Shown one piece after another: positions 500 to 60,347 of a stretch of DNA of 64,000 nt. The notes under the pieces are model-generated. The model was not told where the DNA came from. It did no database searches and saw only the letters and a list, made by a program, of their open reading frames with translations. The first letter of the stretch is position 1; each line of letters begins with the position of its first letter. The stretch spans positions 32,001-96,000 of IMG/VR virus record IMGVR_UViG_3300028591_000079, one strand, 5' to 3'. The translations under genes and the position numbers were made by a program. This stretch comes from a virus. Its lineage: Duplodnaviria > Caudoviricetes.

Positions 500-1630
500 A
501 TGATACCACTATTTAAAGTTTTTATGGCAGATTCAGTAGATAAGCCATTATTAGAAACACTTCATTCTGGTTTTATTGGTGAAGGTCCAAAAGTACTAGA
601 ATTTGAAGAAACACTTAAAAAACATCTTAAAACAGAAAATGTATTAACTACTAATTCTGGTACTTCTGCATTATATCTTATTTATCATATGATAAAACAT
701 CCAAAAACTTCACATGTGTTGCGAAAAACAATTATAACAACACCCATAACTTGTACGGCAACAAATAATCCAATTGTTCTAAATGATATAGACATTGCTT
801 GGGCTGATGTTGATCCAATTACGGGAAACATTACTCCAGAATCGTTACTGGAAGCGCTGATGATAGAGCCAAATGGATATGCTTACAACACCCAGGGTGT
901 ATCTATAGTTCATTGGGGTGGAAATCCTTGTGATATAGAGGATATAGCTAAAATATCACATTCTTATGGTCTAAAACTTATAGAAGATGGTGCGCATTCA
1001 TTTGGTATGGAATATAATGGAAAACCTTTTGGATATTATTCAGATTTTGCTATGCACTCATTTCAAGCAATAAAGCATATAACTGCGGGGGATGGTGGTT
1101 GTTTAATATGTAAAAATAAGGATGATTATGAAAGAGCCAAGCTATTAAGATGGTATGGTATAGATAGAGAAATAAAAGAAGGCATAGATCTAAGATGCGA
1201 ATTAGACATTGCTGAAGCTGGATATAAATTTCACATGAATGATTTAGCGGCAACAATTGGTAATGAAAATTTTAAATATCTACCACAAATATTACAAAAG
1301 CATAGAGATAATGCAAAATTTTATGACAAAGCATTTGAGGGAAAAGTAAAATATGCACCAGAAAATCCAAATGGTAAATCAGCTTATTGGTTATATACTA
1401 TTCATGCCGAAAATAGAGATGAATTGATGCAAAAACTAAAAGAAAAAGGTATTATGGCATCAAAGGTACACTCAAGAAATGACACTCATAGTATGTTTAA
1501 GAGTTTTCAAAGACCATTGCCAGGAGTAGAAGAATTCAATCGTACCCATCTTTGTATTCCTGTTGGTTGGTGGGTTACAGAAGAAGATCGTGAATATATT
1601 GCAGAACAGGTGATAAAATATGCAAGATAA
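500..1630 (+). CDS. DegT/DnrJ/EryC1/StrS family PLP-dependent sugar aminotransferase
   Basis: NSGTSAL, VHWGG, IEDGAHSFG, SFQAIKHITAGDGG (PLP Lys), GYKFHMND; SD AGGAGG. Confidence 0.95.
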   Translation: MIPLFKVFMADSVDKPLLETLHSGFIGEGPKVLEFEETLKKHLKTENVLTTNSGTSALYLIYHMIKHPKTSHVLRKTIITTPITCTATNNPIVLNDIDIAWADVDPITGNITPESLLEALMIEPNGYAYNTQGVSIVHWGGNPCDIEDIAKISHSYGLKLIEDGAHSFGMEYNGKPFGYYSDFAMHSFQAIKHITAGDGGCLICKNKDDYERAKLLRWYGIDREIKEGIDLRCELDIAEAGYKFHMNDLAATIGNENFKYLPQILQKHRDNAKFYDKAFEGKVKYAPENPNGKSAYWLYTIHAENRDELMQKLKEKGIMASKVHSRNDTHSMFKSFQRPLPGVEEFNRTHLCIPVGWWVTEEDREYIAEQVIKYAR

Positions 1631-2459
1631 ACCAAAACTTTCAATTGTAGCCGGTATTTATTTTCCTCTAGAGATTTGTTTTAGAAGGTTTTTGGATGCG
1701 TGTCTTAGTCAAACAATAAAAGATGTTGAATTTATATTTCTATTAGATTCGCCTGAAGATAAACAATCAAGAAATATATTAGAAGAGTATAAAGACCTAT
1801 TGGATAACCGCTTTATAATTGTAGAAAATGAAAAAAATTTAGGGGTTGTTGATACATATTTGAAAGGTTGTGAGTTATCTAAAAGTGATTGTGTTATGAT
1901 AGTTGACTCAGATGATTTTTTTGATAATGACCTAATTGAAAAGATGTATAATTATTTTATTGAGCATGGTTTAGATTTTTTAGGCCCTAGAATATTGATG
2001 AGTTATCTTGGTGAATTAGATGTTTTTTATGCCTTAAACAATAACGATGATCCAACAGATACAGGAATAATGTTTAGAAAGAAGATTTTGGGTGAATATG
2101 AGGAATTTAGAAAATATATCAATTACACACTTATAAATACAATAAAAAAGACCAATTACAAAGTTGATGTTTTACCGTTAGATTTTGAAAGTTTTTATTA
2201 TTATACAGTCACCAATAGAAGTGCAACAAGTAGTTTTATATTACAAGACAACGGTGAAGTTCCCAAAAGCAAAGACTATCAATATTATAAAGATGGTGTG
2301 ATTAGATTTATAGAGACATTTTTGAGCAATACAACAAATAAAAAGATCAAATTTGAAGATTATACATTAGATGAATTGAAAGATATGGCAAAAAAGTATC
2401 TTGATTTAGACAATTTATTAGAAAACGACCTAACCTGTGAAGAGCTAAAAAAAATCTGA
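1620..2459 (+). CDS. GT2-family glycosyltransferase
   Basis: CLSQT, NEKNLG, DSDD DxD motif. Confidence 0.85.
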   Translation: MQDKPKLSIVAGIYFPLEICFRRFLDACLSQTIKDVEFIFLLDSPEDKQSRNILEEYKDLLDNRFIIVENEKNLGVVDTYLKGCELSKSDCVMIVDSDDFFDNDLIEKMYNYFIEHGLDFLGPRILMSYLGELDVFYALNNNDDPTDTGIMFRKKILGEYEEFRKYINYTLINTIKKTNYKVDVLPLDFESFYYYTVTNRSATSSFILQDNGEVPKSKDYQYYKDGVIRFIETFLSNTTNKKIKFEDYTLDELKDMAKKYLDLDNLLENDLTCEELKKI

Positions 2460-2812
2460 TGAATGAATATTATAATATCTTAAAAGAAAATCATAAAAAC
2501 ATAAAATACCATCCTGGTTTTGATATGCTAGTTATTAAGTGTACAAATATAAAAGAACAATTGACAGGCCTAAAAAAGATTGTAAAAACGCTCATATTTG
2601 GTATTCAATCTAAAAAAATAAACAAAAATTCGATTATAATAGAGATTAATGGTGAAGATTTTATTAAAGATGATATTATAATACTACTAAACATTATGAA
2701 ACTCACTAAAACGTCTCATTATTTCAATATAGTGGTCAAAAACGGATTAGATAGTAGGATAGAGTTTATAAGATGCAAATATAGAGGAGTAAAAATAAAT
2801 GAAGGGATATAA
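2459..2812 (+). CDS. hypothetical protein, paralog of 4045-4527
   Basis: Translationally coupled; LKKIVKTLIFGIQSKK resembles LKKLINMTLYMIQTKK. Confidence 0.65.
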   Translation: MNEYYNILKENHKNIKYHPGFDMLVIKCTNIKEQLTGLKKIVKTLIFGIQSKKINKNSIIIEINGEDFIKDDIIILLNIMKLTKTSHYFNIVVKNGLDSRIEFIRCKYRGVKINEGI

Positions 2813-3209
2813 AGTAATAGATTTTGAAGTGCACCCAGATGAGAGAGGAAAATTGACTGCTGTATCTGAAATGAAAGAGATACCGTTTGAGATAAAAAGA
2901 ATATACTACACATGGGATATGCCAAAAGAAGCAATTAGGGGAGGACATGCACACAAGGTTTTAGATGAAGTAATGATTTGTTTGCGTGGTTCTTGTGATT
3001 TTGTGTTAGATGATGGAAAAGAAAAAATTACAATCACACTAGACAGACCAAACAAGGGATTATATGTGTCAGCTCATTTATGGAGACATTTTACTAATTT
3101 TTCTCCAGACTGCGTTGTTATGTTGATTGCCTCAGACTATTTTCACCCAGAAGATCATGTAAAAGATTATAATGAGTTTTTAAAGCTAAGAGCAGAAGAT
3201 GAAGAATAA
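2799..3209 (+). CDS. FdtA/QdtA/WxcM-like dTDP-sugar 3,4-ketoisomerase (cupin)
   Basis: DERGKL, PFEIKRIYY, RGGHAH, LIASDYF. Confidence 0.92.
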   Translation: MKGYKVIDFEVHPDERGKLTAVSEMKEIPFEIKRIYYTWDMPKEAIRGGHAHKVLDEVMICLRGSCDFVLDDGKEKITITLDRPNKGLYVSAHLWRHFTNFSPDCVVMLIASDYFHPEDHVKDYNEFLKLRAEDEE

Positions 3210-4044
3210 TATAAAAATTTCTGTTATTACTGGAGTTTATCATCCGAATGAGTCTTTATTTCGGAAGTTTTTATATTCCTGCTTAAATCAAACTCTAGAT
3301 GGAATACAATTTATTATGGTTTTTGATGATCCAGAAGATAAAAATTCTAGAAGCATAATAAAAGAACACCAAGAACAAATAGATAATAACAAAAATACTT
3401 TTACGATACTAGAAAATAATAAAAACTTGGGAATATATGAAACACAAATGAAAGGATTGAAAAACGCATTGGGTGAATATATTGTGTTTTTTGATGATGA
3501 TGATTTTTTTGATTTTGAATATTTAGAGATAATGTACAAATATGCTAAAGAGTTTGATGCAAATGTCATAAAAGGCTGGGCATTGACTCATTATTTTGGA
3601 GATATAGATTTGAATTTTACTTTTATATGTCAACACGAAAATATATTCAATGAAGACGATTGGTTATATATGTACAAAAAAGATTTCTTCGTTAATTATT
3701 TCTATTATTCTAAAATGTACACTTCTGATACGGCAATAACAAACAGATCAAAAGAAAAAGAAATAATATTACAAATTCCATTTTATGAGGGTGTATTTTA
3801 TCATTATGTTAGGCACTGTGATAATACATCTTTTGTTCCAATTACAGAAGAAAATTTTAGCATCAGCAACAGTGAGGGTGTGGAAGATCAAAGAAGAATA
3901 TATGAAAGGTTTATGAAGGATGTAAAAGAAGAGTTTGATATAGAAAAAACAAACAAGCAAAAACTAACGACTATTTTACAAAATCATTTAAGACTAGATA
4001 ATACATCAAACGACTATAATTTTGAAAGACTGAAAGGATTATAA
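3199..4044 (+). CDS. GT2-family glycosyltransferase (paralog of 1620-2459)
   Basis: CLNQT, NNKNLG, GEYIVFFDDDD. Confidence 0.87.
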   Translation: MKNNIKISVITGVYHPNESLFRKFLYSCLNQTLDGIQFIMVFDDPEDKNSRSIIKEHQEQIDNNKNTFTILENNKNLGIYETQMKGLKNALGEYIVFFDDDDFFDFEYLEIMYKYAKEFDANVIKGWALTHYFGDIDLNFTFICQHENIFNEDDWLYMYKKDFFVNYFYYSKMYTSDTAITNRSKEKEIILQIPFYEGVFYHYVRHCDNTSFVPITEENFSISNSEGVEDQRRIYERFMKDVKEEFDIEKTNKQKLTTILQNHLRLDNTSNDYNFERLKGL

Positions 4045-4527
4045 ATGAACATAGGTATAGATATTTATAAAAACAGTCTTCATTTATCTAATCAACAGGC
4101 TATAAGTATAATAAAAAGAGCTCGTTATATGTTATCTGGACTGCAAACACAAAAAGAAGATATTATTGGATTTAATTTTGGTGGCATATTTACAAAAGAA
4201 GAAAAAGTATTGTTAGAGCTAAAAAAACTAATCAATATGACACTATACATGATACAAACAAAAAAATTAGATGGGATAGTATTATATATAGATGAATTGA
4301 TTGATAAAGAAGAATTTAGAAATATAATAGATCTTGCTAAATTTTCTGGTATAACAAACAGATTAAAAATAAAAACTAAAAGCATTAAAGATAAAGATTT
4401 TTTAATGTATTATCCTGAATTAAAAGTTGAAATTATTGAAAAAGATGATACAATATTCAGTAAAAGATATGTATTAGATCAAAAGGAAGAGTTTATTTGC
4501 AAATTATATGAAAATGGAGAAAAATAA
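4045..4527 (+). CDS. hypothetical protein, possibly degenerate radical-SAM N-terminal half
   Basis: GFNFGGIF aligns by eye with GIIGGEFF of neighbours; no CxxxCxxC. Confidence 0.55.
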   Translation: MNIGIDIYKNSLHLSNQQAISIIKRARYMLSGLQTQKEDIIGFNFGGIFTKEEKVLLELKKLINMTLYMIQTKKLDGIVLYIDELIDKEEFRNIIDLAKFSGITNRLKIKTKSIKDKDFLMYYPELKVEIIEKDDTIFSKRYVLDQKEEFICKLYENGEK

Positions 4528-5474
4528 TGCAGTTAGATAGTAGGTTTTTGCAATTAGTTTTATGGGTAGATTGTAATAGTCATTGTGCTTTTTGTTTGAA
4601 TCGAAGAGGATTAATGAATAAAGACTTTCACGAAGATAAGATAGAAAATATACATAAAGCCTTAGAAATAGTAAAAAACATAAAACAGGGACAGTATGAT
4701 TTTGTTGGTATTATCGGTGGCGAATTTTTTCAAGGACAAATAACGGAAGAAGTTGCACCACATTATCAAGAACTAGTAGATGAAATAAAAAGCAAAATTG
4801 ATAAAGGATATATAAAAAAATTGTTTGTGGCCAGTTCTTTGATGGGTCCGGATAATTATAATGAGTTTCAGAAATATTTTAGTGCATTTGATAGGTCTGA
4901 AATATTAATCTGTACATCATATAATACTTGGGGACAGTTTGGTTTTTTCCCTGAATCTAATTGGCAAGAAAACTACAAAAAATTTACAGATAATGGGTAC
5001 CAACTGCACATTGAAATTATAGCATCAGAAGCAAATCTAAATGCAATACTTGAAGGAAAATTGAATTTACTTCCTTGGGTTAGAAACAATATTAGAATAG
5101 ACTTCCTTAGACCAATTGATTTCCTAAATGAACCAAAACAAAAATTTCCATGCTTCTTTCCAAAACGAGAAACATTCATAAAATTCATGATGTTCTTAGA
5201 AGTCAATTTCCCGCAAATGATGGATGACTTCATGAGTCTAAAACAAAGAGCTTCGTTGCTACATAACTTTACATTTGATCAAACAGTAGAAAGAAAAGAA
5301 GAGTTTAACGAAGGTGAAGGTTATATAATGGATTGTGGACACTCTAGTTTATTTAAGGCATATATAGATTCAGATCATTGTATGGCTTGTGATATTTTGG
5401 CTTTTTATAAACGAAACAAATATAGAACAGTTGACAAAGATTTACCACAGGAGAAGAAAGATGGCAATGAATAA
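4527..5474 (+). CDS. radical SAM protein (phage paralog family)
   Basis: CNSHCAFC; GIIGGEFFQGQ; CTSYNTWG; C-terminal CGH...DSDHCMACD. Confidence 0.88.
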   Translation: MQLDSRFLQLVLWVDCNSHCAFCLNRRGLMNKDFHEDKIENIHKALEIVKNIKQGQYDFVGIIGGEFFQGQITEEVAPHYQELVDEIKSKIDKGYIKKLFVASSLMGPDNYNEFQKYFSAFDRSEILICTSYNTWGQFGFFPESNWQENYKKFTDNGYQLHIEIIASEANLNAILEGKLNLLPWVRNNIRIDFLRPIDFLNEPKQKFPCFFPKRETFIKFMMFLEVNFPQMMDDFMSLKQRASLLHNFTFDQTVERKEEFNEGEGYIMDCGHSSLFKAYIDSDHCMACDILAFYKRNKYRTVDKDLPQEKKDGNE

Positions 5475-6459
5475 AAGAATAATACAATATGAAGTTTGGA
5501 AGGAGTGCCATAATCACTGTAAATTTTGTTTTTTGAAAGATGATATACTTCACACTCCTGATCATGTAAAATTGGGTGGTATAAAAAACGCCATAAATCA
5601 AATCACAGATGATATAAACAATAAAAGAATAGATGGTGTAGGTATTATTGGTGGAGATTTTTGGCAAGGTGAAATTACAACAGAAGAAATAAGAACAGAA
5701 TTTTTCAAACTTATAGATTTATGTTTCAATTATCTAAAAAACGGAGACATAAGTGAAGTTTGGTTATCTGCAACATTAACATTAGGAGCTCAAGAAGATT
5801 TATATAGGGCTCTTGATATGTATAATGAAATGATTCCAGATGAAGAAAAAGAAGATAAAAGACTTTGGATCTGCACTTCTTATGATACAATTGGAAGGTT
5901 TCATATACCAGCAATGTTAGAAAACTGGGAATATCACATGAAGAATATTGGCGAAAAGTATCCAAAAGTCTTTAAAAACACATCATTTATTATAACCAAC
6001 GATCTAGTAAAGAAAACATTATCTGGCGAATTTGATTTTATAAAGTTTGAAGAAGAATTTGGAACCAATGTATATATGAAAACCCCATCACACATTTACG
6101 AAGATTGGGAAGAAGGTAAGAAGAAATTTCAAGAGACGGTGGGTGATTTCTTTTTAGAGCGCAAACCAACTATTGAATTCTTACAAAAGCTAAACGAGGT
6201 GTCTCCAGAGTTGTTGAACAAAATAATGAACAATGACTTAAGGGCTAATGTTTTGGTTGGACACAGTAATGATGGGAATTTTGATGTAATGATAAGAGAC
6301 CAAGAAGACCATCATAAAAATATTAGTGTGGCAACTGGCGGAGAAAACACTGAAAAAGCTCAAATAATGGCCTGTGGACACGAAAAACAGTATAAGTGCT
6401 ATATAGACTCAGACAAGTGTTTTATGTGCGATCTACAACGATTATTCAAGGTATTATAG
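5461..6459 (+). CDS. radical SAM protein (phage paralog family)
   Basis: CHNHCKFC; GIIGGDFWQG; CTSYDTIGRFH; CGHEKQYKCYIDSDKCFMCD; start moved to ATG 5461 after AGGAG. Confidence 0.88.
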   Translation: MAMNKRIIQYEVWKECHNHCKFCFLKDDILHTPDHVKLGGIKNAINQITDDINNKRIDGVGIIGGDFWQGEITTEEIRTEFFKLIDLCFNYLKNGDISEVWLSATLTLGAQEDLYRALDMYNEMIPDEEKEDKRLWICTSYDTIGRFHIPAMLENWEYHMKNIGEKYPKVFKNTSFIITNDLVKKTLSGEFDFIKFEEEFGTNVYMKTPSHIYEDWEEGKKKFQETVGDFFLERKPTIEFLQKLNEVSPELLNKIMNNDLRANVLVGHSNDGNFDVMIRDQEDHHKNISVATGGENTEKAQIMACGHEKQYKCYIDSDKCFMCDLQRLFKVL

Positions 6460-6467
6460 GGGGGAAA

Positions 6468-8078
6468 ATGAAAAAATATACTCTATTAGTTGAAGAAGAT
6501 ACAATACATGACAGTGATGTTGTATTGTTAGATGATAAAAAGATATTATGTATACTAGAAAATGAACGTGTAACAAAACATAAGCACGCAGTATATGAAA
6601 AATGTGATGCTATTATAGACTATGTATTGAAACGTTATAATATTGGCAAAGATGAAGTTAATATTGTCAAAGGAATAAATACACAACATAACAGCCATCA
6701 CGAATTACATGCTTTGGCCACATACCTTTCTTCTGGTTATGATAAAGCAAGTATTTTAGTTATAGATGGATATGGAGACCAAGATGATTCTGTGACTTTG
6801 TTTGCAGGGAGAGGTCAAAATATTTACGAATTAAAGAAGTATCACGTAATGTATTCTTTGGGTAATCTTTATAATTGTGCTTCTAGGTTACTCTATGATA
6901 ATGCTGGATATAGTGAAGGTAAGATGATGGGGTTGTCTTGTTGTTCTGAACCTGAATATAGTATACCAAGTCCAATACAATATCATGAAGATGGAACTGT
7001 AGAGTGTATTGCTAAAATAGATGAAAATTGTCCGATAGAAGAAAATATTATGAACTATATAAAGGAACAGTTTTCATATTTGATTGGTAATGATGGCAAT
7101 GTAATGGGTGTTGATATATATAAAGCTAAAATTGCTGCAACTGTTCAATGGTGGTTTACAGAGCAAGTTGTTAATCTGGTCAAATATATCAAAAAGCTAA
7201 ATCCTAACACTGAAAATCTTTGTGTTTGTGGTGGATGTTTTCTAAATTGCGAGACCAATGGAATTATAGACAGACTTGAATTATTCAAAAATATATATTG
7301 TATTCCAGCTCCTGCAGATAATTCAATAGTTTTAGGTAGAGCTCAACAATTTTTGGTAGAAATAGGATCAAAACCACAAACAATAAAAAGTCCATATTGG
7401 GGCCCTGACTCTGATAAAACTTTTGAAGATTTATTGGAAGAATTTAAAATAAAAGAAGTAGATGGTAAATTTAGATCACAAATAACAAATGCTCATGATA
7501 TAAGTAAGTATTCAGAAGATTGGGTTATTGAAAGACTAAAGGCAGATAGGGTTATTTTATGGTTTGATGGTGGTTCTGAATTTGGGCCTCGTGCATTAGG
7601 ACATAGATCGTTTTTAGCCAATCCTGCAACAAATGAAATGTTTTGGAGACTCAGTGTAAAAATCAAAAGTAGAGAAAACTATAGACCACTTGCGCCAATT
7701 ACAACAGATGAGCTATATCCAATGATTTTTGAAGATCCCAATCCAGAAAATCTTACACAATTTATGCTAAAAACAGTAAAAGTAAAAGATGAGTGGAGAT
7801 CTAAACTAAAAGCTGTTACACACATAAATCAAACAGCTCGTCCCCAACGTTTAACTGAAGATGTAAATCCAGTTCTATATTCATTAATAAGCAAATGGTA
7901 TAAAGAATCTGGACTGCCTTGTCTTATAAATACATCTCTAAATCTAAAAGGACAACCATTATTGGAAACATATGACGATTTAAAATCAATTCTTATAAAT
8001 CCTAACATTTTATTGAACAAGTGTAGTGTAGTAATTGATCATAAGTTGTGTTTTGATATTTACGAAGGAGCAGCATAA
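6468..8078 (+). CDS. carbamoyltransferase, NodU/CmcH/TobZ family
   Basis: ENER, SHHELHA, VIDGYGD, EGKMMGL, GGCFLNC, EFGPRALGHRS, RENYRPLAP, INTSLN. Confidence 0.95.
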   Translation: MKKYTLLVEEDTIHDSDVVLLDDKKILCILENERVTKHKHAVYEKCDAIIDYVLKRYNIGKDEVNIVKGINTQHNSHHELHALATYLSSGYDKASILVIDGYGDQDDSVTLFAGRGQNIYELKKYHVMYSLGNLYNCASRLLYDNAGYSEGKMMGLSCCSEPEYSIPSPIQYHEDGTVECIAKIDENCPIEENIMNYIKEQFSYLIGNDGNVMGVDIYKAKIAATVQWWFTEQVVNLVKYIKKLNPNTENLCVCGGCFLNCETNGIIDRLELFKNIYCIPAPADNSIVLGRAQQFLVEIGSKPQTIKSPYWGPDSDKTFEDLLEEFKIKEVDGKFRSQITNAHDISKYSEDWVIERLKADRVILWFDGGSEFGPRALGHRSFLANPATNEMFWRLSVKIKSRENYRPLAPITTDELYPMIFEDPNPENLTQFMLKTVKVKDEWRSKLKAVTHINQTARPQRLTEDVNPVLYSLISKWYKESGLPCLINTSLNLKGQPLLETYDDLKSILINPNILLNKCSVVIDHKLCFDIYEGAA

Positions 8079-10145
8079 ATGACATTTAAAGAGAAGATGG
8101 TAGAATTTTTACAGAACACAGATAAAGATAAAGTTCGTACAAATCTAAACGAAAACAGTATGAGCATATCTATTGGCTGCGACATAAACCATATAGAAGC
8201 TGAAAAAATTCGTACAATGATCAAAAATGCAAATGAGAACTATAAGGTTTGTATTATTCATACTTGTACTGCATATGGACAATTTATAGACTTGACGAAA
8301 GATGTAATCAATTTTGTATCTAAAAATCTTCCAAAGTCATATAGTTTATTTTTGGCTGGTTGTGGGGTAGATACATTTGCAGAAGAATTTCCAAAACTAA
8401 CAATAATATCTGGAAATGCAAAATTTGATGTAGAAAGTTATAATATTCCAAAAGTTGATGATGGCAAATCTGCAGATGCTCCAATGGGAATAATACAAAT
8501 TCAAACAGGATGCAATAATCAATGTTCATACTGCCAATTTCCAATGTTAAAAGGTCACAAATCAATATCTACACCTAAAAAAGAAATATTAGATCTGGTA
8601 AAATATAATATAAATAATGGAGTAAGAGACATAACATTGACAGGAGTAAACATCTGCCAGTATAAAGATCCAAATGATGAAACAGATCTAATTGGACTAC
8701 TAAAATATATAGTCAAAAATAGTATAGGGCTAAATAAACTTTCAATGTATTCGATAGATCCAGCTTATGAAGATATATTTAAATTGATTGATTATATAGA
8801 AGAAGAACCATTGATGAGTAAAGATTTGTATTTGGCAACTCAATCTGGTTCCGATAAGGTGTTGAAAAAAATGAATAGAAGACACAACACTTTTCGCATG
8901 AACTCTATAATAAACTATGTAAAAAATGTAAAACTAAGACATGATTTTATAATTGGGCACCCAGGCGAAGAAGATGAGGATTTTCAACAATCTTTACAAT
9001 TATTAAGAATGACTCAAGAAAACGAAATTGTTGGTGGTATAGCCGAGTTTTATGCGCACGAAGGAACAGCATCTTATTATATGGAAGACAAAGTAGATTC
9101 AAAAATAGCCCATGAAAGATATGAACTCATGACAAATACGCTAAATAAAATAACTAATCTAATAAAACAAGAAGTTAGATGTATTCAATTTGAACTTTGG
9201 CATAATTGTACTAATGAATGCAAATTTTGTTATTTAAATGGTTGTAGAAAGTGCTTTACCGAGGAACAAAAACAAAAATCAATACAAAAAGTTTTAGATA
9301 TATTAGAAACAGATAAAATAAATGGTTTCAATGCTGTTGGGCTTATAGGCGGGGAATTATTTATGGGGCAACAAGGAGATGAAAGAACACAAAACAAATT
9401 TCAAACACTGATACGCAAAATAAAAACATTCCTAGATAAAGATGAAATAAAGGAAGTCTGGTTAACATCCAATCTAATGACGGAAAACATTGGACCACTT
9501 ACGGAGACTTTAGATATATTGATGGAAAAATTGCCTAAATATCAAAGAATCATGTTGTGCACTTCTTATGATACAAAAGGAAGATTCCATACAGAGGCTG
9601 CTTATAAACAATGGTATGATAATTTATTGAGGCTTCGTGAAATTTATCCAAGACTCTGTATTCATATTCAATCTATTTGTACACAAGAATTAGTAAATGA
9701 GTGGTTGACTAACAAAGAAAAGTTTGTAGATTTTATAGATAGAGGCTTCTTAATTGATTTTAAACCACCTGCTACCAATGCTGTAGATTTTATATATAAC
9801 AACACAGGACATGATTCATACAGGGAAAATCTAGAAAAATTTGCAAAAACACAAGACTATAGATACTTAATTGATTCAAGAGAAAAGTTTATGAAATTCT
9901 GGGAGGTTGTATATAATACTTTTCCAGATGGGTTACAAAAACTAAAAGACTTTAATAGTAATCATGTTAAATCTGAGTGTTGTTATTCTGTCCCTTGGAA
10001 TGAATGGTTTGAAAATAGATGGGATAATAATATAGAAAACGCACCTTGTGGACACTGTTGGGATGGTTATTGTTATAAAGATCACCCGGATAGATGTGCC
10101 AAATGCGATGTAGAAAAACTAATAAAAATGTTGGAGAAAAAATAA
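8079..10145 (+). CDS. MiaB/RimO-like methylthiotransferase fused to second radical-SAM domain
   Basis: N-terminal GC..N/HTC/AGC cysteines, GCNNQCSYC, QSGSDKVLKKMNR, DFIIGHPGE; then CTNECKFC, GLIGGELF, TSYDTKGRFH, CGH tail. Confidence 0.88.
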   Translation: MTFKEKMVEFLQNTDKDKVRTNLNENSMSISIGCDINHIEAEKIRTMIKNANENYKVCIIHTCTAYGQFIDLTKDVINFVSKNLPKSYSLFLAGCGVDTFAEEFPKLTIISGNAKFDVESYNIPKVDDGKSADAPMGIIQIQTGCNNQCSYCQFPMLKGHKSISTPKKEILDLVKYNINNGVRDITLTGVNICQYKDPNDETDLIGLLKYIVKNSIGLNKLSMYSIDPAYEDIFKLIDYIEEEPLMSKDLYLATQSGSDKVLKKMNRRHNTFRMNSIINYVKNVKLRHDFIIGHPGEEDEDFQQSLQLLRMTQENEIVGGIAEFYAHEGTASYYMEDKVDSKIAHERYELMTNTLNKITNLIKQEVRCIQFELWHNCTNECKFCYLNGCRKCFTEEQKQKSIQKVLDILETDKINGFNAVGLIGGELFMGQQGDERTQNKFQTLIRKIKTFLDKDEIKEVWLTSNLMTENIGPLTETLDILMEKLPKYQRIMLCTSYDTKGRFHTEAAYKQWYDNLLRLREIYPRLCIHIQSICTQELVNEWLTNKEKFVDFIDRGFLIDFKPPATNAVDFIYNNTGHDSYRENLEKFAKTQDYRYLIDSREKFMKFWEVVYNTFPDGLQKLKDFNSNHVKSECCYSVPWNEWFENRWDNNIENAPCGHCWDGYCYKDHPDRCAKCDVEKLIKMLEKK

Positions 10146-11104
10146 TGAAAGTTTTGCAAATATCTCCTTGGTCTAATTGTAAAAACCACTGTGCCTTTTG
10201 TTCTCAGCGTGGGGATAGACCTTTTACGATTGAAGAAAGAAAACAGCATTTAGAAGATATATATTCTGAATTTATGGATGGTAGTATTTTTCAGAAGTAT
10301 GATTTTGAAGGTTTTGGTATTATAGGTGGAGAGTTTTTTGCCGGACAGATAGATGGAATAGAGGATGTTTGGTATAAGCTGGTTGAACATTTTGCAGAAC
10401 TATTGAAAACACACAAGCTAAAACAAATATGGATCAATAGTAATCTTATACAGGTCAATATGGAACAAATAGAAAAAACCTTTGAAAAATTTGACTGGGA
10501 TAGTTTGGGTGAAGATCAGAAAGTTTTATTACCAACCTCTTATGACACCAAAGGAAGATTTCATACAGAAGAAGATAAGACTCAATGGTATAAAAATGTG
10601 GAATATATAGCTAAAAAATTTCCAAAACTAGAAGTATATGGAACAGCTATTACCACCCAAGCATTTATTGAAGAATTGCTTGAAGATCGTTTTGTTTATC
10701 CAACTGGTCTTAGAGCTTTAAATTTATTGGTGCCAAGACTAACAGATGCAGATTATTTTAGCCCACAAACACACACAAAAGCGTATCGTGAAATTTTATT
10801 ATCTAAATTGAATGAATATCCTGAGTGGTTTTTCCCAAAGTCTAGAAAACAGTTTGTGCAATTTTTATATAAAGTAAGGGAAGTATTGGGAGATGGTGTG
10901 CTAAGAAACTTTTATGAGGTTGAAAGGCATTCTTCTGATGTGTTTACTTATTTTCCAGCTAAAAACACTTACTTTGTAGATCGTCATACTAAATGTAACT
11001 GTAAAGAAAACATGCCTTGTGGACACCCTTATACGTCTTGTTGTTATTTAGATTCTGATAAATGTTGCCACTGTGATGCTCAAAATATTGTAAAGTTTGA
11101 TTAG
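10145..11104 (+). CDS. radical SAM protein (phage paralog family)
   Basis: CKNHCAFC; GIIGGEFFAGQ; TSYDTKGRFH; CGHPYTSCCYLDSDKCCHCD. Confidence 0.88.
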   Translation: MKVLQISPWSNCKNHCAFCSQRGDRPFTIEERKQHLEDIYSEFMDGSIFQKYDFEGFGIIGGEFFAGQIDGIEDVWYKLVEHFAELLKTHKLKQIWINSNLIQVNMEQIEKTFEKFDWDSLGEDQKVLLPTSYDTKGRFHTEEDKTQWYKNVEYIAKKFPKLEVYGTAITTQAFIEELLEDRFVYPTGLRALNLLVPRLTDADYFSPQTHTKAYREILLSKLNEYPEWFFPKSRKQFVQFLYKVREVLGDGVLRNFYEVERHSSDVFTYFPAKNTYFVDRHTKCNCKENMPCGHPYTSCCYLDSDKCCHCDAQNIVKFD

Positions 11105-26371: not shown

Positions 26372-27100
26372 CTACCCCCTTACTAAATTTACCATTGTTT
26401 CTAATTCTTCAAAATCATCAAACTCTATTATTTTCCTACCATCTTTTTCTATTGCCAGTGTTTCTAATCTGTCCCCATTCCATTCATCGCCCACTAATTC
26501 TAAATAATTCTCGTGTAACTTATATTTCTTAATCTTTTTATAATACGAAACATCAATAAATAAATCCCATATAAATTTCCACCTCTTATAATACTCTAAT
26601 GTTCCCTTCTCACATAATCTATCTAATGCATCTAAACATTCTTCATTAAACGCATAAATACCATTCCCATAATCAGATCCTACGCCTAAAAACTCCCCTA
26701 TCCTTATCGCATCATCACTACTGTTTATCATCAAGCATATCCTATTCCCATCATGCCTCGCCCATATGTTTACCATACCGTAGTTCTTCAATATCTCTTC
26801 GTTCAATTCCACTCTCTTCTTAACCCAATCACCCATCTCTATCAATCTTTCATTTTTCTCCAAGATATCTATAGCGTCTGTGTTTCTTCCACTTATTATA
26901 TCTTCTACCATGCCACTTATACTATCATACTCCCCACAAAATTTCCCACATACATATAAATACCTACCATCCCCTACAACAACCTCATTACAAAAACCAA
27001 ATACCTCCTCCCCAAAATAATAAGTCCCATTACAATAAACTATCCCACTCTGTGACTCTAACCATTTTCTTCCTAACTCTAAATGCTCTTCTATCGTCAT
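26372..27100 (-). CDS. 242-aa protein, probable paralog of 51457-52194
   Basis: Ends FEELETMVNLVRG. Confidence 0.75.
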   Translation of the reverse strand: MTIEEHLELGRKWLESQSGIVYCNGTYYFGEEVFGFCNEVVVGDGRYLYVCGKFCGEYDSISGMVEDIISGRNTDAIDILEKNERLIEMGDWVKKRVELNEEILKNYGMVNIWARHDGNRICLMINSSDDAIRIGEFLGVGSDYGNGIYAFNEECLDALDRLCEKGTLEYYKRWKFIWDLFIDVSYYKKIKKYKLHENYLELVGDEWNGDRLETLAIEKDGRKIIEFDDFEELETMVNLVRG

Positions 27101-28274: not shown

Positions 28275-28601
28275 TCAAGCTTCATAATAATCAGTCGGTT
28301 TATAAAATTCAATGTCCTCCGCCCCGTCATATTCACTAATCCTAAATACCTTACCCTTCTCAACCCATATAACCGTCAAACCATCTACCCCACCATAATA
28401 CCCGTCTGCACCAAATAATTCCTCCGCCTTTTGTATTATCTCTTCTTCCCCTGCACCCCTTTCTACTAATTCTATAATCTCAGGACTAAATACCATCTCT
28501 TCAACTTTATCAGGAACCCCACACCAAGTACTCCAACCAGCCCCATACCCACATGAAATCAATACCCCAATCTTTCCATCACGTTCTACTTTCTTTACCA
28601 T
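28275..28601 (-). CDS. conserved phage hypothetical protein (GYGAGWSTW type)
   Basis: SCGYGAGWSTW and FRISEYDGAE motifs. Confidence 0.75.
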   Translation of the reverse strand: MVKKVERDGKIGVLISCGYGAGWSTWCGVPDKVEEMVFSPEIIELVERGAGEEEIIQKAEELFGADGYYGGVDGLTVIWVEKGKVFRISEYDGAEDIEFYKPTDYYEA

Positions 28602-28773
28602 ACCTAATCACCCCTTTTCGTTATATGTGCTTCGTTCCCTATAAGACCCATTTCATTCCCTAAACAGTCTCAAAACCCCATCAGTAAAGTGTCATCTCCC
28701 TATATCAATAAAAAGACTCTATATACACTAGACTAAACTACCCCTCATGCTGTTTTAGACTCTTTTTTCTTAT

Positions 28774-28801
28774 ACTTTACCATATTTAATTCCGCTAACA
28801 A
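28774..28801 (-). promoter_or_regulatory. promoter heading the left orphan block
   Basis: TTGTTA-GCGGAATTAAATATGG-TAAAGT. Confidence 0.6.
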
Positions 28802-28820
28802 CATTAATTATCCCATACCC

Positions 28821-28890
28821 CATTTAATACCATACACTACCATATCATACCATCTTCACCCATAACTATACATAACAATACATAAAAAAC
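28821..28890. repeat. seven degenerate 10-bp units each starting CAT
   Basis: catttaatac catacactac catatcatac catcttcacc cataactata cataacaata cataaaaaac. Confidence 0.7.
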
Positions 28891-28913
28891 CAAAGAAAAG
28901 CACCGAATAACAG

Positions 28914-29115
28914 GACTCTAAGGCTCAAAATAAGGACTCCAAAAGACTATAAAAAGGGACTCCAAAAGACTGAAAAAAGACTCCAAGGACTAATTAACAA
29001 CTGTTTTCAAAGCCTAAGTCCATTTTGAGTCTCATAGCACGCATTTAATTCTAGTCCTTTCAAAGTCTTATTCAGTCCGGCCCAAAGACTATTATAAGAC
29101 TTATTTTTATGGACT
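28914..29115. repeat. helically phased GACT/AGTC box array
   Basis: GACT at 28914, 28935, 28945, 28958, 28968, 28979, 28988; AGTC at 29017, 29028, 29053, 29064, 29074. Confidence 0.8.
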
Positions 29116-29502
29116 ATGAGATGGGATAAAAGTCTTGAATGTATAGTTGTGGCCCAAGATAATAAAAGTCTCTGTACGGTCAAAAAAAGTAGGTTTATGG
29201 AGACTTTGTATTTTTAGATTTTAGATGGGTGAGATTTTTTTATTATGAGTTGATAGTGGGGTGAGACTAATATATAGAGATGATGCGGTAATAAAAGAGA
29301 CTATATTAGGACTGGAGAGGACTATTAAAAGACTAAAAAGGGGAGTTTTGTATTGACAGATGTATATACAAAGGCAAGGAAATTCTTAAGAGGAAAAGGA
29401 AGGGGTAAAAAATAAAAAATGTAGTAAATTCAATAGATTAGAAAAAATAAGGCTAAAAAGTTTGTATAGACATTTGTATAGACATTATGAAGATTTGGGT
29501 AT

Positions 29503-29544
29503 AAAAAAGAAAAGTCCCGATCTAGGAGTAGTAAGATTGGGACT
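29503..29544 (-). terminator. intrinsic terminator of sRNA2
   Basis: AGTCCCAATCT..AGATCGGGACT then U-tract on minus strand. Confidence 0.75.
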
Positions 29545-29682
29545 AAAAAGGAGTTATGGAATATGTCTTAGGCCTAGAGGAGAGAGAATGTAGGAGGGAG
29601 ACTAGGACCTAAGACTTGTGTGTGTATATGAATGACTAAGAGGTACTATAAGTAAAACAAACCAGTCAAAACAAGAACACGC
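29503..29682 (-). ncRNA. predicted sRNA2 with anti-SD/anti-AUG loops
   Basis: Consensus promoter 29688-29716, hairpin 29565-29615, terminator; no convincing SD-led ORF seen on this strand. Confidence 0.6.
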
Positions 29683-29687
29683 GGTAG

Positions 29688-29716
29688 ATTATAGGATGGT
29701 TTAGGATGGGTGTCAA
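29688..29716 (-). promoter_or_regulatory. perfect sigma70 promoter
   Basis: TTGACA-17-TATAAT. Confidence 0.85.
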
Positions 29717-29744
29717 GATTAATGTTTTATGGGAGGATGATAAG

Positions 29745-29783
29745 AAAAAGAAAAACCCTCCTAGTCTATGCTCTAAGAGGGTT
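29745..29783 (-). terminator. intrinsic terminator of sRNA1
   Basis: AACCCTCTTAG..CTAGGAGGGTT then U-tract. Confidence 0.75.
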
Positions 29784-30081
29784 ACGCAACATGTTTATAA
29801 TCTACATCGTCTACTTTTGTCCTTGAGACTGGAGGATTTCTATAAGACTGAACAGATATCAATAAAAAGATCTTATAGATAAACCAGACAAGGGGGTACA
29901 TCAAGCAAACGGATCTATGGTAGAGGAGAGAGAATGTAGGAAAGGGAATCTACCATAGGCCTGTTTACTCTAGCTGAGGGGATAAGATGAAAGGAAGGAA
30001 AGGAGAAATTTGGACTACTGGAGAAAAAGAAATAATAACGTTCAACGAGTCCAAAAAGATCTTATCCCCCTTGCTGAGTAC
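29745..30081 (-). ncRNA. predicted structured sRNA1 (~335 nt)
   Basis: Promoter 30088-30116; stems 29967-30080, 29907-29966, 29821-29892; terminator. Confidence 0.6.
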
Positions 30082-30087
30082 GAATAC

Positions 30088-30116
30088 ATTATAAGCCTAT
30101 TTAATTATATTATCAA
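30088..30116 (-). promoter_or_regulatory. sigma70 promoter
   Basis: TTGATA-17-TATAAT with AATTAAA in spacer. Confidence 0.75.
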
Positions 30117-58762: not shown

Positions 58763-58838
58763 GGGGTTGTAGCTCAGTTGGTAGAGCACCTGCTTTGCAA
58801 GCAGGGGGTCGTCAGTTCGAGTCTGATCAGCTCCACCA
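58763..58838 (+). tRNA. tRNA-Ala(UGC)
   Basis: Full cloverleaf, canonical TTCGA, encoded CCA. Confidence 0.95.
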
Positions 58839-58840
58839 GT

Positions 58841-58914
58841 GGTCCTGTCGTCTAAAGGAAGGACACCACCCTTTCAAGGTGAGAATGCGGTCTCGGGATC
58901 CGCCAGGACTACCA
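58841..58914 (+). tRNA. tRNA-Glu(UUC), atypical T-arm
   Basis: Acceptor GGTCCTG/CAGGACT, anticodon loop CTTTCAA, CCA. Confidence 0.85.
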
Positions 58915-58921
58915 TTTTTAT

Positions 58922-58997
58922 TCCCGCTTAGCTCAATGAGTAGAGCATCTGACTGTTAATCAGAAGGTTGTTGGGGCGGAGCCAACAGCGGGAGCCA
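58922..58997 (+). tRNA. tRNA-Asn(GUU), atypical T-loop
   Basis: Acceptor TCCCGCT/AGCGGGA, loop CTGTTAA, CCA. Confidence 0.9.
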
Positions 58998-58998
58998 C

Positions 58999-59074
58999 GC
59001 CTGTGTAGCACAATTGGTAGTGCATCCGATTTGTAATCGGAAGGTTGGCGGATCATGCCCGTCCACAGGCACCA
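58999..59074 (+). tRNA. tRNA-Thr(UGU), atypical T-loop
   Basis: Acceptor GCCTGTG/CACAGGC, loop TTTGTAA, CCA. Confidence 0.9.
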
Positions 59075-59082
59075 TTTTTATT

Positions 59083-59168
59083 GGGTCACTATTCCACTAA
59101 AGACGTGGGGCGGACTGTAAATCCGTTATCTTTCGATTGGCCTGGAGCGTTACCAGGGTGGCCCACCA
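59083..59168 (+). tRNA. tRNA-Tyr(GUA), long variable arm, atypical T-loop
   Basis: Acceptor GGGTCAC/GTGGCCC, loop CTGTAAA, CCA. Confidence 0.88.
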
Positions 59169-59176
59169 TCATATTT

Positions 59177-59202
59177 TACCACATTTATATGTGGTATTTT
59201 TT
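59177..59202 (+). terminator. intrinsic terminator after tRNA-Tyr
   Basis: TACCACAT-TTAT-ATGTGGTA then T-tract. Confidence 0.65.
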
Positions 59203-59268
59203 ATTAAATATTTCAAACATTAGTATGAAAAATAAGTTCTAATACTTATCCAGCAAAAGGTAAGTATT

Positions 59269-60159
59269 ATGTTTAATTGTAAATATTGTAATGAAAAATT
59301 TGAAAATGCCAAAAAAGTTGCAGCACATACAAAATGGTGCAAACAAAATCCAAATCGTGGGGTTGGGGTGTTGAAAATAAAACACAGATATTGTGCTATT
59401 TGTGGAAAAGAAATTTTTTGGAACAAAAAACACAGGAGTAAAGTGTGTGATAATGAAAATTGCAAAAAAGAAATAAGAAAACATACTGATGATTATAAAA
59501 AATCAATGTCTAAAAAAAGAAAAAAATGGCTAAAAGAACATCCAAATTTGCATCCATGGAAAAATAATAACAAATTTATATCAAAACCATGTGAACATTT
59601 AAAAAATATATTACAAAAAAACAATATTTTTTTTGAAAAAGAATTTTCGCCAATAGAAAACAGATTTTTTTCAATAGATATATTTATTCCATCTAAAAAT
59701 ATTGGATTAGAAGTGAACGGAAATCAACATTACACAAAAGATGGTAATTTAAAAAAATATTATCAAAACAGACATGATCTTATTGAAAAACATGGAATAA
59801 AATTAATAGAAATACATTATGCAATGGTTTATAATAATAATTTTATTGTTGATCTTTTGGGTTTTATAAATAATTTAAAAGAGATAAATATTGATCAATA
59901 TAAAAAAGATGTAAAATTATCTAAAAAACAAAAAATTATTGAACAAAAAAAATATAGAGAAAACAAAGCGAAGGAAAAAATACAAAAAAGAATTCAAAAA
60001 ATACAAAATATGAACATAAATTTTTCAAAATTTGGTTGGAACACCAAAGTGTCAAAAAATCTTCAAATTTCAAACACACAAGTAAGACGTTTTATGGAAA
60101 AATATATGCCAGAATTTTATTCAAAATGTTATAAAAGAAAAAGTTGTAAAAAAAATTAA
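59269..60159 (+). CDS. putative free-standing homing endonuclease (Vsr/DUF559-like PD-(D/E)xK with Zn fingers)
   Basis: CKYC..H...C, CAIC; FSIDIF..IGLEVNGNQHY; located inside tRNA cluster, very AT-rich. Confidence 0.7.
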   Translation: MFNCKYCNEKFENAKKVAAHTKWCKQNPNRGVGVLKIKHRYCAICGKEIFWNKKHRSKVCDNENCKKEIRKHTDDYKKSMSKKRKKWLKEHPNLHPWKNNNKFISKPCEHLKNILQKNNIFFEKEFSPIENRFFSIDIFIPSKNIGLEVNGNQHYTKDGNLKKYYQNRHDLIEKHGIKLIEIHYAMVYNNNFIVDLLGFINNLKEINIDQYKKDVKLSKKQKIIEQKKYRENKAKEKIQKRIQKIQNMNINFSKFGWNTKVSKNLQISNTQVRRFMEKYMPEFYSKCYKRKSCKKN

Positions 60160-60171
60160 ACATGCTATTAT
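60144..60171 (+). promoter_or_regulatory. phage promoter for second tRNA group
   Basis: TTGTAA-AAAAAATTAAACATGC-TATTAT. Confidence 0.6.
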
Positions 60172-60180
60172 ATAAATATA

Positions 60181-60255
60181 GCCCCTGTGGTGTAATAGAT
60201 AGCATTTATCTCTTCTAAAGATACGATCCTGGCGCACATCCAGGCAGGGGTGCCA
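60181..60255 (+). tRNA. tRNA-Arg(UCU), atypical T-loop
   Basis: Acceptor GCCCCTG/CAGGGGT, loop CTTCTAA, CCA. Confidence 0.88.
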
Positions 60256-60262
60256 GTTTTAT

Positions 60263-60347
60263 CCGTCTGTGGCGGAATTGGTAGACGCTCAGCACTAAGG
60301 ATGCTGTGGAGAAACCCGTGGGGGTTCAAGTCCCCCCAGACGGACCA
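60263..60347 (+). tRNA. tRNA-Leu(AAG)
   Basis: Leu-type D-arm GGCGGAATTGGTAGACGC, stem CAGCA/TGCTG, loop CTAAGGA, long variable arm, TTCAAGT, CCA. Confidence 0.88.

Follow-up and report, generated by a model that had tools for sequence, protein, structure and literature searches.

Tandem minus-strand RNA units of a jumbo phage carry the loops of a conserved alphaproteobacterial small RNA and one of them is predicted to pair with the host dnaA ribosome-binding site

What might a large phage gain from two tandem, apparently non-coding units that expose the same 21-nt segment in hairpin loops built on different stems? The units lie on the minus strand between positions 29503 and 30116 of a 64,000-nt stretch of DNA (the window, to which all positions refer unless stated otherwise), which corresponds to bases 32001–96000 of the 231,064-bp IMG/VR virus record IMGVR_UViG_3300028591_000079. 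A previous reading of the letters alone (the original prediction) had taken them for small RNAs (sRNAs) that silence, in a generic manner, the translation of mRNAs with strong Shine-Dalgarno (SD) sequences. Here we report that, by sequence, their loops are copies of two invariant loops (loop 1 and loop 2) of a conserved sRNA of the probable bacterial hosts, a relationship that was invisible to the original prediction, and that the loop-2 copy is complementary to the ribosome-binding site (RBS) of host dnaA. We consider it fairly probable that the units are tandem phage sRNA genes acting as same-sense mimics of this host sRNA, unit 1 blocking dnaA translation; the phage would thus probably use RNA mimicry to act on host replication. 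The anatomy of the units, their membership of the family (seed and hairpin position) and the link to the host are well supported, while we infer that the units are transcribed, that the effect is repression rather than activation and that the phage benefits. The phage sRNA copies and the dnaA link are new findings. The units comprise the following features.

30088–30116, minus strand: promoter of unit 1 (TTGATA, 17 nt, TATAAT; consensus 11/12), with a start expected near 30081.
29745–30081, minus strand: predicted transcript of unit 1, ~337 nt (minimum free energy -94.4 kcal/mol, z = -4.6, 0 of 100 shuffles as good).
29988–30009, minus strand: loop-2-type seed of unit 1, in the internal loop of the long 5' hairpin, complementary to the host dnaA RBS.
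29915–29958, minus strand: loop-1 hairpin of unit 1, with a variant 24-nt loop changed in its 5' part (unpaired probability 1.00).
29745–29783, minus strand: intrinsic terminator of unit 1, an 11-bp stem (hairpin 29783–29754) and a U-run, found by terminator scan and fold.
29688–29716, minus strand: promoter of unit 2 (TTGACA, 17 nt, TATAAT; consensus 12/12), with a start expected near 29681.
29503–29681, minus strand: predicted transcript of unit 2, ~179 nt (minimum free energy -41.3 kcal/mol, z = -5.5, 0 of 200 shuffles as good).
29565–29615, minus strand: loop-1 hairpin of unit 2, its loop identical to the host consensus.
29545–29558, minus strand: single-stranded CU tract between the hairpins of unit 2 (unpaired probability 1.00).
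29503–29544, minus strand: intrinsic terminator of unit 2, a hairpin at ~29544–29513 with a 10-nt CU-containing loop and a U-run, seen in the fold.

The predicted architecture, two minus-strand units each with a promoter, extensive structure and a U-tailed terminator, was borne out. The ends of the unit 1 transcript were deduced from the positions of promoter and terminator. Only two sigma-70 promoter sites matching the consensus at 12 of 12 positions occur in the whole 231 kb, and the promoter of unit 2 is one of them. The terminator of unit 2 was missed by the terminator scanner, which accepts loops of up to 8 nt. The shared 21-nt segment was found, as predicted, at 29575–29595 and 29921–29941; these are its sole two copies in the 231,064-bp genome, and by our own arithmetic about 5e-4 such identical pairs are expected by chance per 64 kb. 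Each copy, read on the minus strand, sits in a 24-nt hairpin loop, and the stems of the two hairpins differ. The further CU-rich tracts noted originally (29558–29545, the terminator loop of unit 2 and 30007–29989) are all predicted to be unpaired, with a probability of 0.99–1.00 (0.99 for the terminator loop). It had also been claimed that the complement of this terminator loop, AGGAGTAG, is the RBS of several phage genes; it does precede 5 called genes, 4 of them inside the window.

The loop core was then used as an exact-match probe. It was found in other viral contigs, every time in a hairpin loop and with different stems, and when prokaryotes were scanned with a 15-mer, one genome per species, more than 70 non-redundant chromosomal copies emerged, nearly all of them from Alphaproteobacteria of the gut or rumen, Ca. 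Enterousia among them. (Exact matches to a 14-mer exceeded 100 loci, were almost entirely due to chance and were set aside.) The chromosomal gene consists of a promoter with a doubled -35, small hairpins at the 5' end, hairpin 1, which is long and has AGA/UCU closing its 22-nt loop CUCCCUCCUACAUUCUCUCUCC, hairpin 2, with the core UUUCUCCUUUCCUUCC in its loop, and a terminator rich in GC. When 57 copies were aligned, 97.2% of the cells were paired and 16 of the 22 pairs showed compensatory changes, values reached by 0 of 500 shuffles; when the partners were slid by 1–3 columns, at most 55% remained paired. More than 100 G-U cells identify the CU strand as the RNA strand in the host family. Of 121 genomes sampled from the order Rs-D84, 93 were found to hold the sRNA by a covariance model built from host copies only (R1), almost always as a single copy per genome of 0.7–1.1 Mb. 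The genomes without it belong to other families of the order, as judged from their DnaA, which is only ~30% identical. Loop 1 carries no mismatch in any of the 32 genomes matched by a search tolerating 3 mismatches. Rfam 15 has no family for the window (at gathering score), for the region of the units (E up to 10) or for ten related loci; its matches are limited to tRNAs and sub-threshold chance matches.

When R1 was applied to the phage, unit 2 scored 47.3 bits (29615–29565, E = 1.3e-9) with an identical loop; in its stem the letters depart from the host consensus, and all pairs survive apart from one at the loop-closing position. Unit 1 scored 26.4 bits (29969–29895, E = 1.3e-4); its loop, a variant with a 2-nt insertion, has the AGA/UCU closure. 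The second motif of unit 1 (30009–29988) matched model positions 90–111 at 21 of 22 letters (E = 0.06), and its unpaired probability is 1.00. Unit 1 thus presents loop 2 followed by a variant loop 1, and unit 2 an exact loop 1 and no loop 2. In both the phage units and the host sRNA, promoter and terminator lie on the CU strand. The family was found via the loop sequence, so loop identity is no independent test of membership; the independent points are the same loop boundaries, pairing maintained on different stem letters and the presence of the second motif. Three further phage-like contigs (L003, L006 and L026) combine phage genes with a loop-1 hairpin on unrelated stems, which suggests repeated acquisition.

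Some observations on the host family itself were made in passing. In many genomes a gene for an 81-amino-acid protein lies divergent from the sRNA (L270:1018–1263, minus strand; equivalents in L002, L004 and L005). The protein matches no Pfam family at E 0.001 and may regulate the doubled -35 promoter of the sRNA. The small divergent neighbour was considered as an sRNA target and rejected, as an 11-nt match between loop 1 and its initiation region occurs in one genome and not in others. A double match in genome G031, first taken for a second phage-like tandem, comes from a host copy whose two hairpins are separated by a long insert. The contigs L002, L004 and L005, listed as viral in IMG/VR, contain a complete host-type sRNA with host-type neighbours and look chromosomal or prophage-adjacent rather than phage. 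The alphaproteobacterial sRNA is also present in five contigs labelled Muribaculaceae (L181, L182, L185, L204 and L226); since the genome to which L182 belongs falls into the order of the host genome G001, at least this label looks wrong.

Targets of loop 2 were sought in G001, a complete host genome (958,618 bp) that was assembled and scanned, and the best site is the dnaA initiation region. The dnaA leader in 30 genomes of the clade contains GGAAGGAAAGGAGAAA, the exact complement of the loop-2 core, ending 4–9 nt before the start codon. Over these 30 genomes, the predicted duplex between host loop 2 and the dnaA initiation region has a mean energy of -28.7 kcal/mol, as against -18.9 for shuffled loops, and the real loop outscores all 60 shuffles in 22 of 28 genomes. 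When up to one mismatch is allowed, most sRNA-bearing genomes hold the 16-mer complement at two places and no others, opposite the sRNA gene (as its antisense) and at dnaA, and a reversed 16-mer used as control has about zero occurrences genome-wide. The seed of unit 1 behaves like its host counterpart: its mean predicted energy with 28 host dnaA initiation regions is -28.5 kcal/mol, and 21 of the 28 reach -25 or lower. The phage genome holds no other copy of the 16-mer complement, and the search for loop targets within it gave no outstanding site beyond the antisense of the units themselves. The complementarity to the dnaA RBS is conserved and genome-unique. The tract at 29989–30007 had been described as an anti-SD bulge; it is indeed an unpaired CU tract, with a specific conserved target, the dnaA RBS, in place of SD sequences in general. 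Occlusion of ribosome-binding sites by sRNAs is an established mechanism of repression, and since the pairing covers the SD sequence, repression of dnaA is the expected outcome.

Two other conserved elements precede dnaA. One of them, ACUCUUUU, lies in the leader immediately ahead of the 16-mer, ~45 nt upstream of the gene (L389–L418), and could pair with the AAAGGAG of the SD region, so that the dnaA site may sit in a small hairpin. A GCGAGAGAG...GUAGGG element is conserved ~150–200 nt upstream of the dnaA start.

These data can be assembled into the following scheme. Together, the units keep the two exposed invariant seeds of the host RNA on unrelated stems and behind strong sigma-70 promoters of their own, and host RNA polymerase would make the phage RNAs abundantly early in infection. 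The loop-2 seed of unit 1 would pair over 16–18 nt with the SD region of dnaA and block binding of the 30S subunit. DnaA synthesis, and hence new rounds of host replication, would stop, and the phage would replicate with its own polymerase. Loop 1 would act on a second partner; among the candidates is a two-part, weaker site in the dnaA leader. The wider proposition is that phages of this reduced-genome gut lineage pirate core host sRNA seeds and seize the DnaA switch as a general strategy, the present phage having rebuilt both seeds on scaffolds of its own behind constitutive promoters; we hold it to be plausible, though somewhat less likely than not.

Several observations weigh against the scheme. 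Loop 1, which is common to both units and to other phage contigs, was searched without finding a target: neither exact nor wobble-tolerant loop-1 seeds gave one in the complete genome G001, and patterns of 22, 20 and 16 nt with 2–3 mismatches gave no recurrent site in 61 genomes. The original description of this loop as the complement of an SD sequence, a spacer and AUG therefore finds no near-perfect target in these 61 genomes of the host order. The two-part loop-1 site in the dnaA leader has a median shuffle rank of 0.06 and is only suggestive as a candidate partner. The dnaA match weakens in distant sRNA-bearing lineages (G003, G004, G031 and G062) while the sRNA loop is invariant, and genomes with one mismatch in the dnaA site show no compensating change in the sRNA; for these reasons dnaA cannot be the sole constraint on the sRNA. 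The seed order of unit 1 is reversed relative to the host, and its loop-2 seed lies in an internal loop rather than in a hairpin loop. Finally, the phage seed was compared with candidate hosts, and no related phage was found that could supply covariation for the phage-specific parts.

The generic silencing originally proposed, in which the loops serve as surplus anti-SD sequences binding any strong RBS, draws on the composition of the exposed tracts, which are all CU-rich with a CUCC or UCCU core, and on G001, where 8 of the 11 exact loop-1 complements of at least 10 nt lie on SD-plus-start regions; cuckoo-type and RNAIII-type sRNAs act via such loops (PMC4615179). The energies do not follow. 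In its binding to initiation regions, loop 1 has no advantage over composition-matched shuffles, either in the host (mean -8.1 kcal/mol, shuffles -8.8) or in the phage (-8.6, shuffles -8.5), and only ~4% of the initiation regions reach -15 kcal/mol with it. Moreover, generic SD pairing leaves 22–28 invariant nucleotides unexplained, and loop 2 has one specific, genome-unique partner. We therefore regard general silencers as unlikely: what survives of the translation-silencing reading is that these are stand-alone minus-strand RNA genes and that RBS pairing best explains one tract. The lack of a matching RNA target for loop 1, which is nevertheless invariant over 22 nt in every host genome found, could also mean that the RNAs are decoys, titrating a host protein or RNase by which the loops of the host sRNA are recognised. 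Titration would be well served by two copies of loop 1 under very strong promoters, and loop 1 occurs on its own in several unrelated phage contigs. The analysis brought up no candidate for such a protein, a clear RNA partner exists for the loop-2 seed and even loop 1 has its weak two-part site in the dnaA leader, and we rate decoys as rather unlikely.

The strand of transcription bears on another alternative. The plus strand holds perfect complements of host loop 1 (22–25 nt) and of loop 2 (20 nt), it also folds better than shuffles (z = -3.0 and -3.6 for units 1 and 2), and phage anti-sRNAs such as AgvB are known (PMC12197685); an RNA made from it would be a sponge that neutralises the host sRNA and raises DnaA. 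This is very improbable, as the plus strand has no terminator and no promoter better than 9/12, the consensus promoters and the terminators face the opposite way and the minus strand folds better (z = -4.6 and -5.5). As for coding capacity, the only notable open reading frame (ORF) in the units is a 39/40-codon frame at 29904–29782, which spans from just past the loop-1 hairpin to the terminator and whose N-terminal half is, in our reading, hydrophobic. Unit 1 might accordingly be the mRNA of a small hydrophobic peptide, with the CU-rich 5' part as its leader. The start of this frame is not preceded by an SD sequence, in keeping with the original view that no ORF is convincing; this AT-rich DNA has many ORFs of 30–60 codons on either strand, there are no relatives in which coding conservation could be tested, and a peptide would leave unit 2 and the conserved loops unexplained. 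We give this explanation, too, very little weight. Least credible of all is that the units are an inert remnant of host DNA acquired by recombination. The seeds are identical to host sequence, as a remnant would require, but the loops alone were retained while the stems were rebuilt in different letters, each unit has its own consensus promoter and terminator, and there are two units with their seeds kept unpaired. Same-sense mimicry of the host sRNA remains the reading that we prefer.

Compared with the two-loop sRNA of Rs-D84, the phage units share loop 1 (exact in unit 2, variant in unit 1), the loop-closing position, the loop-2 core (unit 1, in an internal loop upstream of loop 1) and the possession of their own sigma-70 promoter and intrinsic terminator. 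They differ in having unrelated stems, extra hairpins and two tandem genes rather than one, in the reversed seed order of unit 1 and the lack of loop 2 in unit 2, in having no small putative helix-turn-helix gene as a neighbour, and in having a single consensus promoter where the host has a doubled -35. The predicted function has a parallel in EcpR1 of Sinorhizobium meliloti and other Rhizobiales, a chromosomal, stress-induced, trans-acting sRNA with two stem-loops, in which a strongly conserved unpaired loop pairs with the dnaA mRNA around the RBS and start codon, with repression shown experimentally (PMC4414408). Both are alphaproteobacterial sRNA types with a conserved loop directed against dnaA, regulation of dnaA being a prediction in the case of the phage units; the loop motif of EcpR1 SL1, UCCGCCGCAUCU, has no match within 2 mismatches in the region of the units. 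The cuckoo or alpha-r14 family (CcsR1-4, NfeR1; RF02344) consists of 2–4 adjacent hairpins, each with CCUCCUCCC in its loop (PMC4615179). It resembles the present RNAs in its occurrence in Alphaproteobacteria, its modular hairpins with variable stems and a CU-rich, anti-SD-like loop motif as the sole conserved sequence. The phage and host loops, in contrast, differ from each other, are much longer (22 and ~27 nt) and have no Rfam match, and the motif CCUCCUCCC is absent from 29503–30116, its sole match in the window being at 27004 on the plus strand.

Among RNAs of mobile elements, PreS/LPR1 of lambda is a phage trans-acting sRNA that enhances dnaN translation in favour of the phage (bioRxiv 10.1101/2024.10.31.621285). 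It has in common with the present case that a phage-encoded sRNA acts on the mRNA of a host replication gene, and differs in enhancing dnaN, where repression of dnaA is predicted here, and in not being a copy of a host sRNA seed. The prophage anti-sRNAs AgvB and AsxR of enterohaemorrhagic E. coli mimic an mRNA target and sponge a host sRNA (PMC12197685). Here too a mobile element would interfere with a core host sRNA network by sequence mimicry. The strand bearing promoters and terminators is, however, of the same sense as the host sRNA, so that the phage transcript is not complementary to the host seed as an AgvB-type RNA is, and should add to the action of the host sRNA rather than cancel it.

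Phage-encoded sRNAs are known, but to our knowledge, and after a brief literature search, same-sense copies of conserved host sRNA seeds on a viral scaffold form no established or described category. If the reading is true, a virus would here be imitating a bacterial sRNA so as to act on the initiation of chromosome replication; its confirmation would mean that a copy of ~20 nt of RNA is enough for viruses to take over a regulatory circuit of the host, with no protein needed. The recurrence of loop 1 in unrelated phage contigs would make such seed piracy general rather than a single case. The analysis also yields an sRNA family that extends across the order Rs-D84 and had not been catalogued, a precise prediction of its target, the dnaA RBS, which suggests RNA control of replication initiation in genomes below 1 Mb, and a host assignment for an orphan 231-kb phage.

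This assignment rests on the following data. The record (32% G+C; CheckV completeness estimate 96%) encodes a tail sheath, baseplate wedge, portal, tail fibre and DNA polymerase, and is on these grounds a myovirus-type jumbo phage; terminase Pfam models gave 0 matches in it, so that its identity as a phage rests on the sheath, baseplate, portal and polymerase instead. Both near and distant DNA searches of GenBank phages were without a match, a 132-amino-acid protein flanking the units has 0 relatives in IMG/VR, and the phage-type seed order (loop 2, gap, loop 1) is absent from the viral and metagenome contigs searched. Its tRNA-Ala(UGC) (58763–58838) is identical over 76 of 76 nt in exactly 36 species genomes in a scan of 185,579, every one of them from Alphaproteobacteria of the gut or rumen or from Enterousia; at least 5 of them also contain the sRNA. 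Sequence matches of this kind make it well supported that the phage infects uncultured gut Alphaproteobacteria of the order Rs-D84 (Ca. Enterousia and relatives). The lineage has been placed in this order and has reduced genomes, mostly <1 Mb (PMC12306168).

Other features of the phage genome touch on the same subject. The tRNA-Ala belongs to a cluster (58763–60347) of 6 tRNAs according to Rfam and 4 according to ARAGORN (Ala, Asn, Thr and Leu), and other phage tRNAs, some near genome position 218,000, are 77–92% identical to tRNAs of G001. A bacterial-type RecA is encoded outside the window, at genome position 156722–157792 (L368:6722–7792), and has 58% protein identity with the RecA of G001. 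At 231 kb, the phage genome amounts to about a quarter of the chromosome of its probable host (0.7–1.1 Mb).

The genes adjoining the units all lie on the minus strand. Ten neighbouring genes gave no significant Pfam or PHROG family, with a single Pfam line below cutoff, and the neighbourhood thus gives no functional clue. Downstream of unit 2, ~900 nt (28600–29500) contain no ORF of at least 60 codons. This segment holds 23-nt spaced repeats with GGACTCCAAAAGACT-like units (28920–28985), many AGTCT/GAGTC words, a TATGG-rich run at ~28790–28890 and a tandem TTTGTATAGACA pair at 29461–29484; it could be a protein-binding array, an origin or a site of further RNA genes. Farther away, a plus-strand block at 500–11104 encodes an aminotransferase, a Nol-like carbamoyltransferase and radical-SAM-type proteins, with a weak MtaB-like similarity, and may be a nucleotide- or sugar-modification module.

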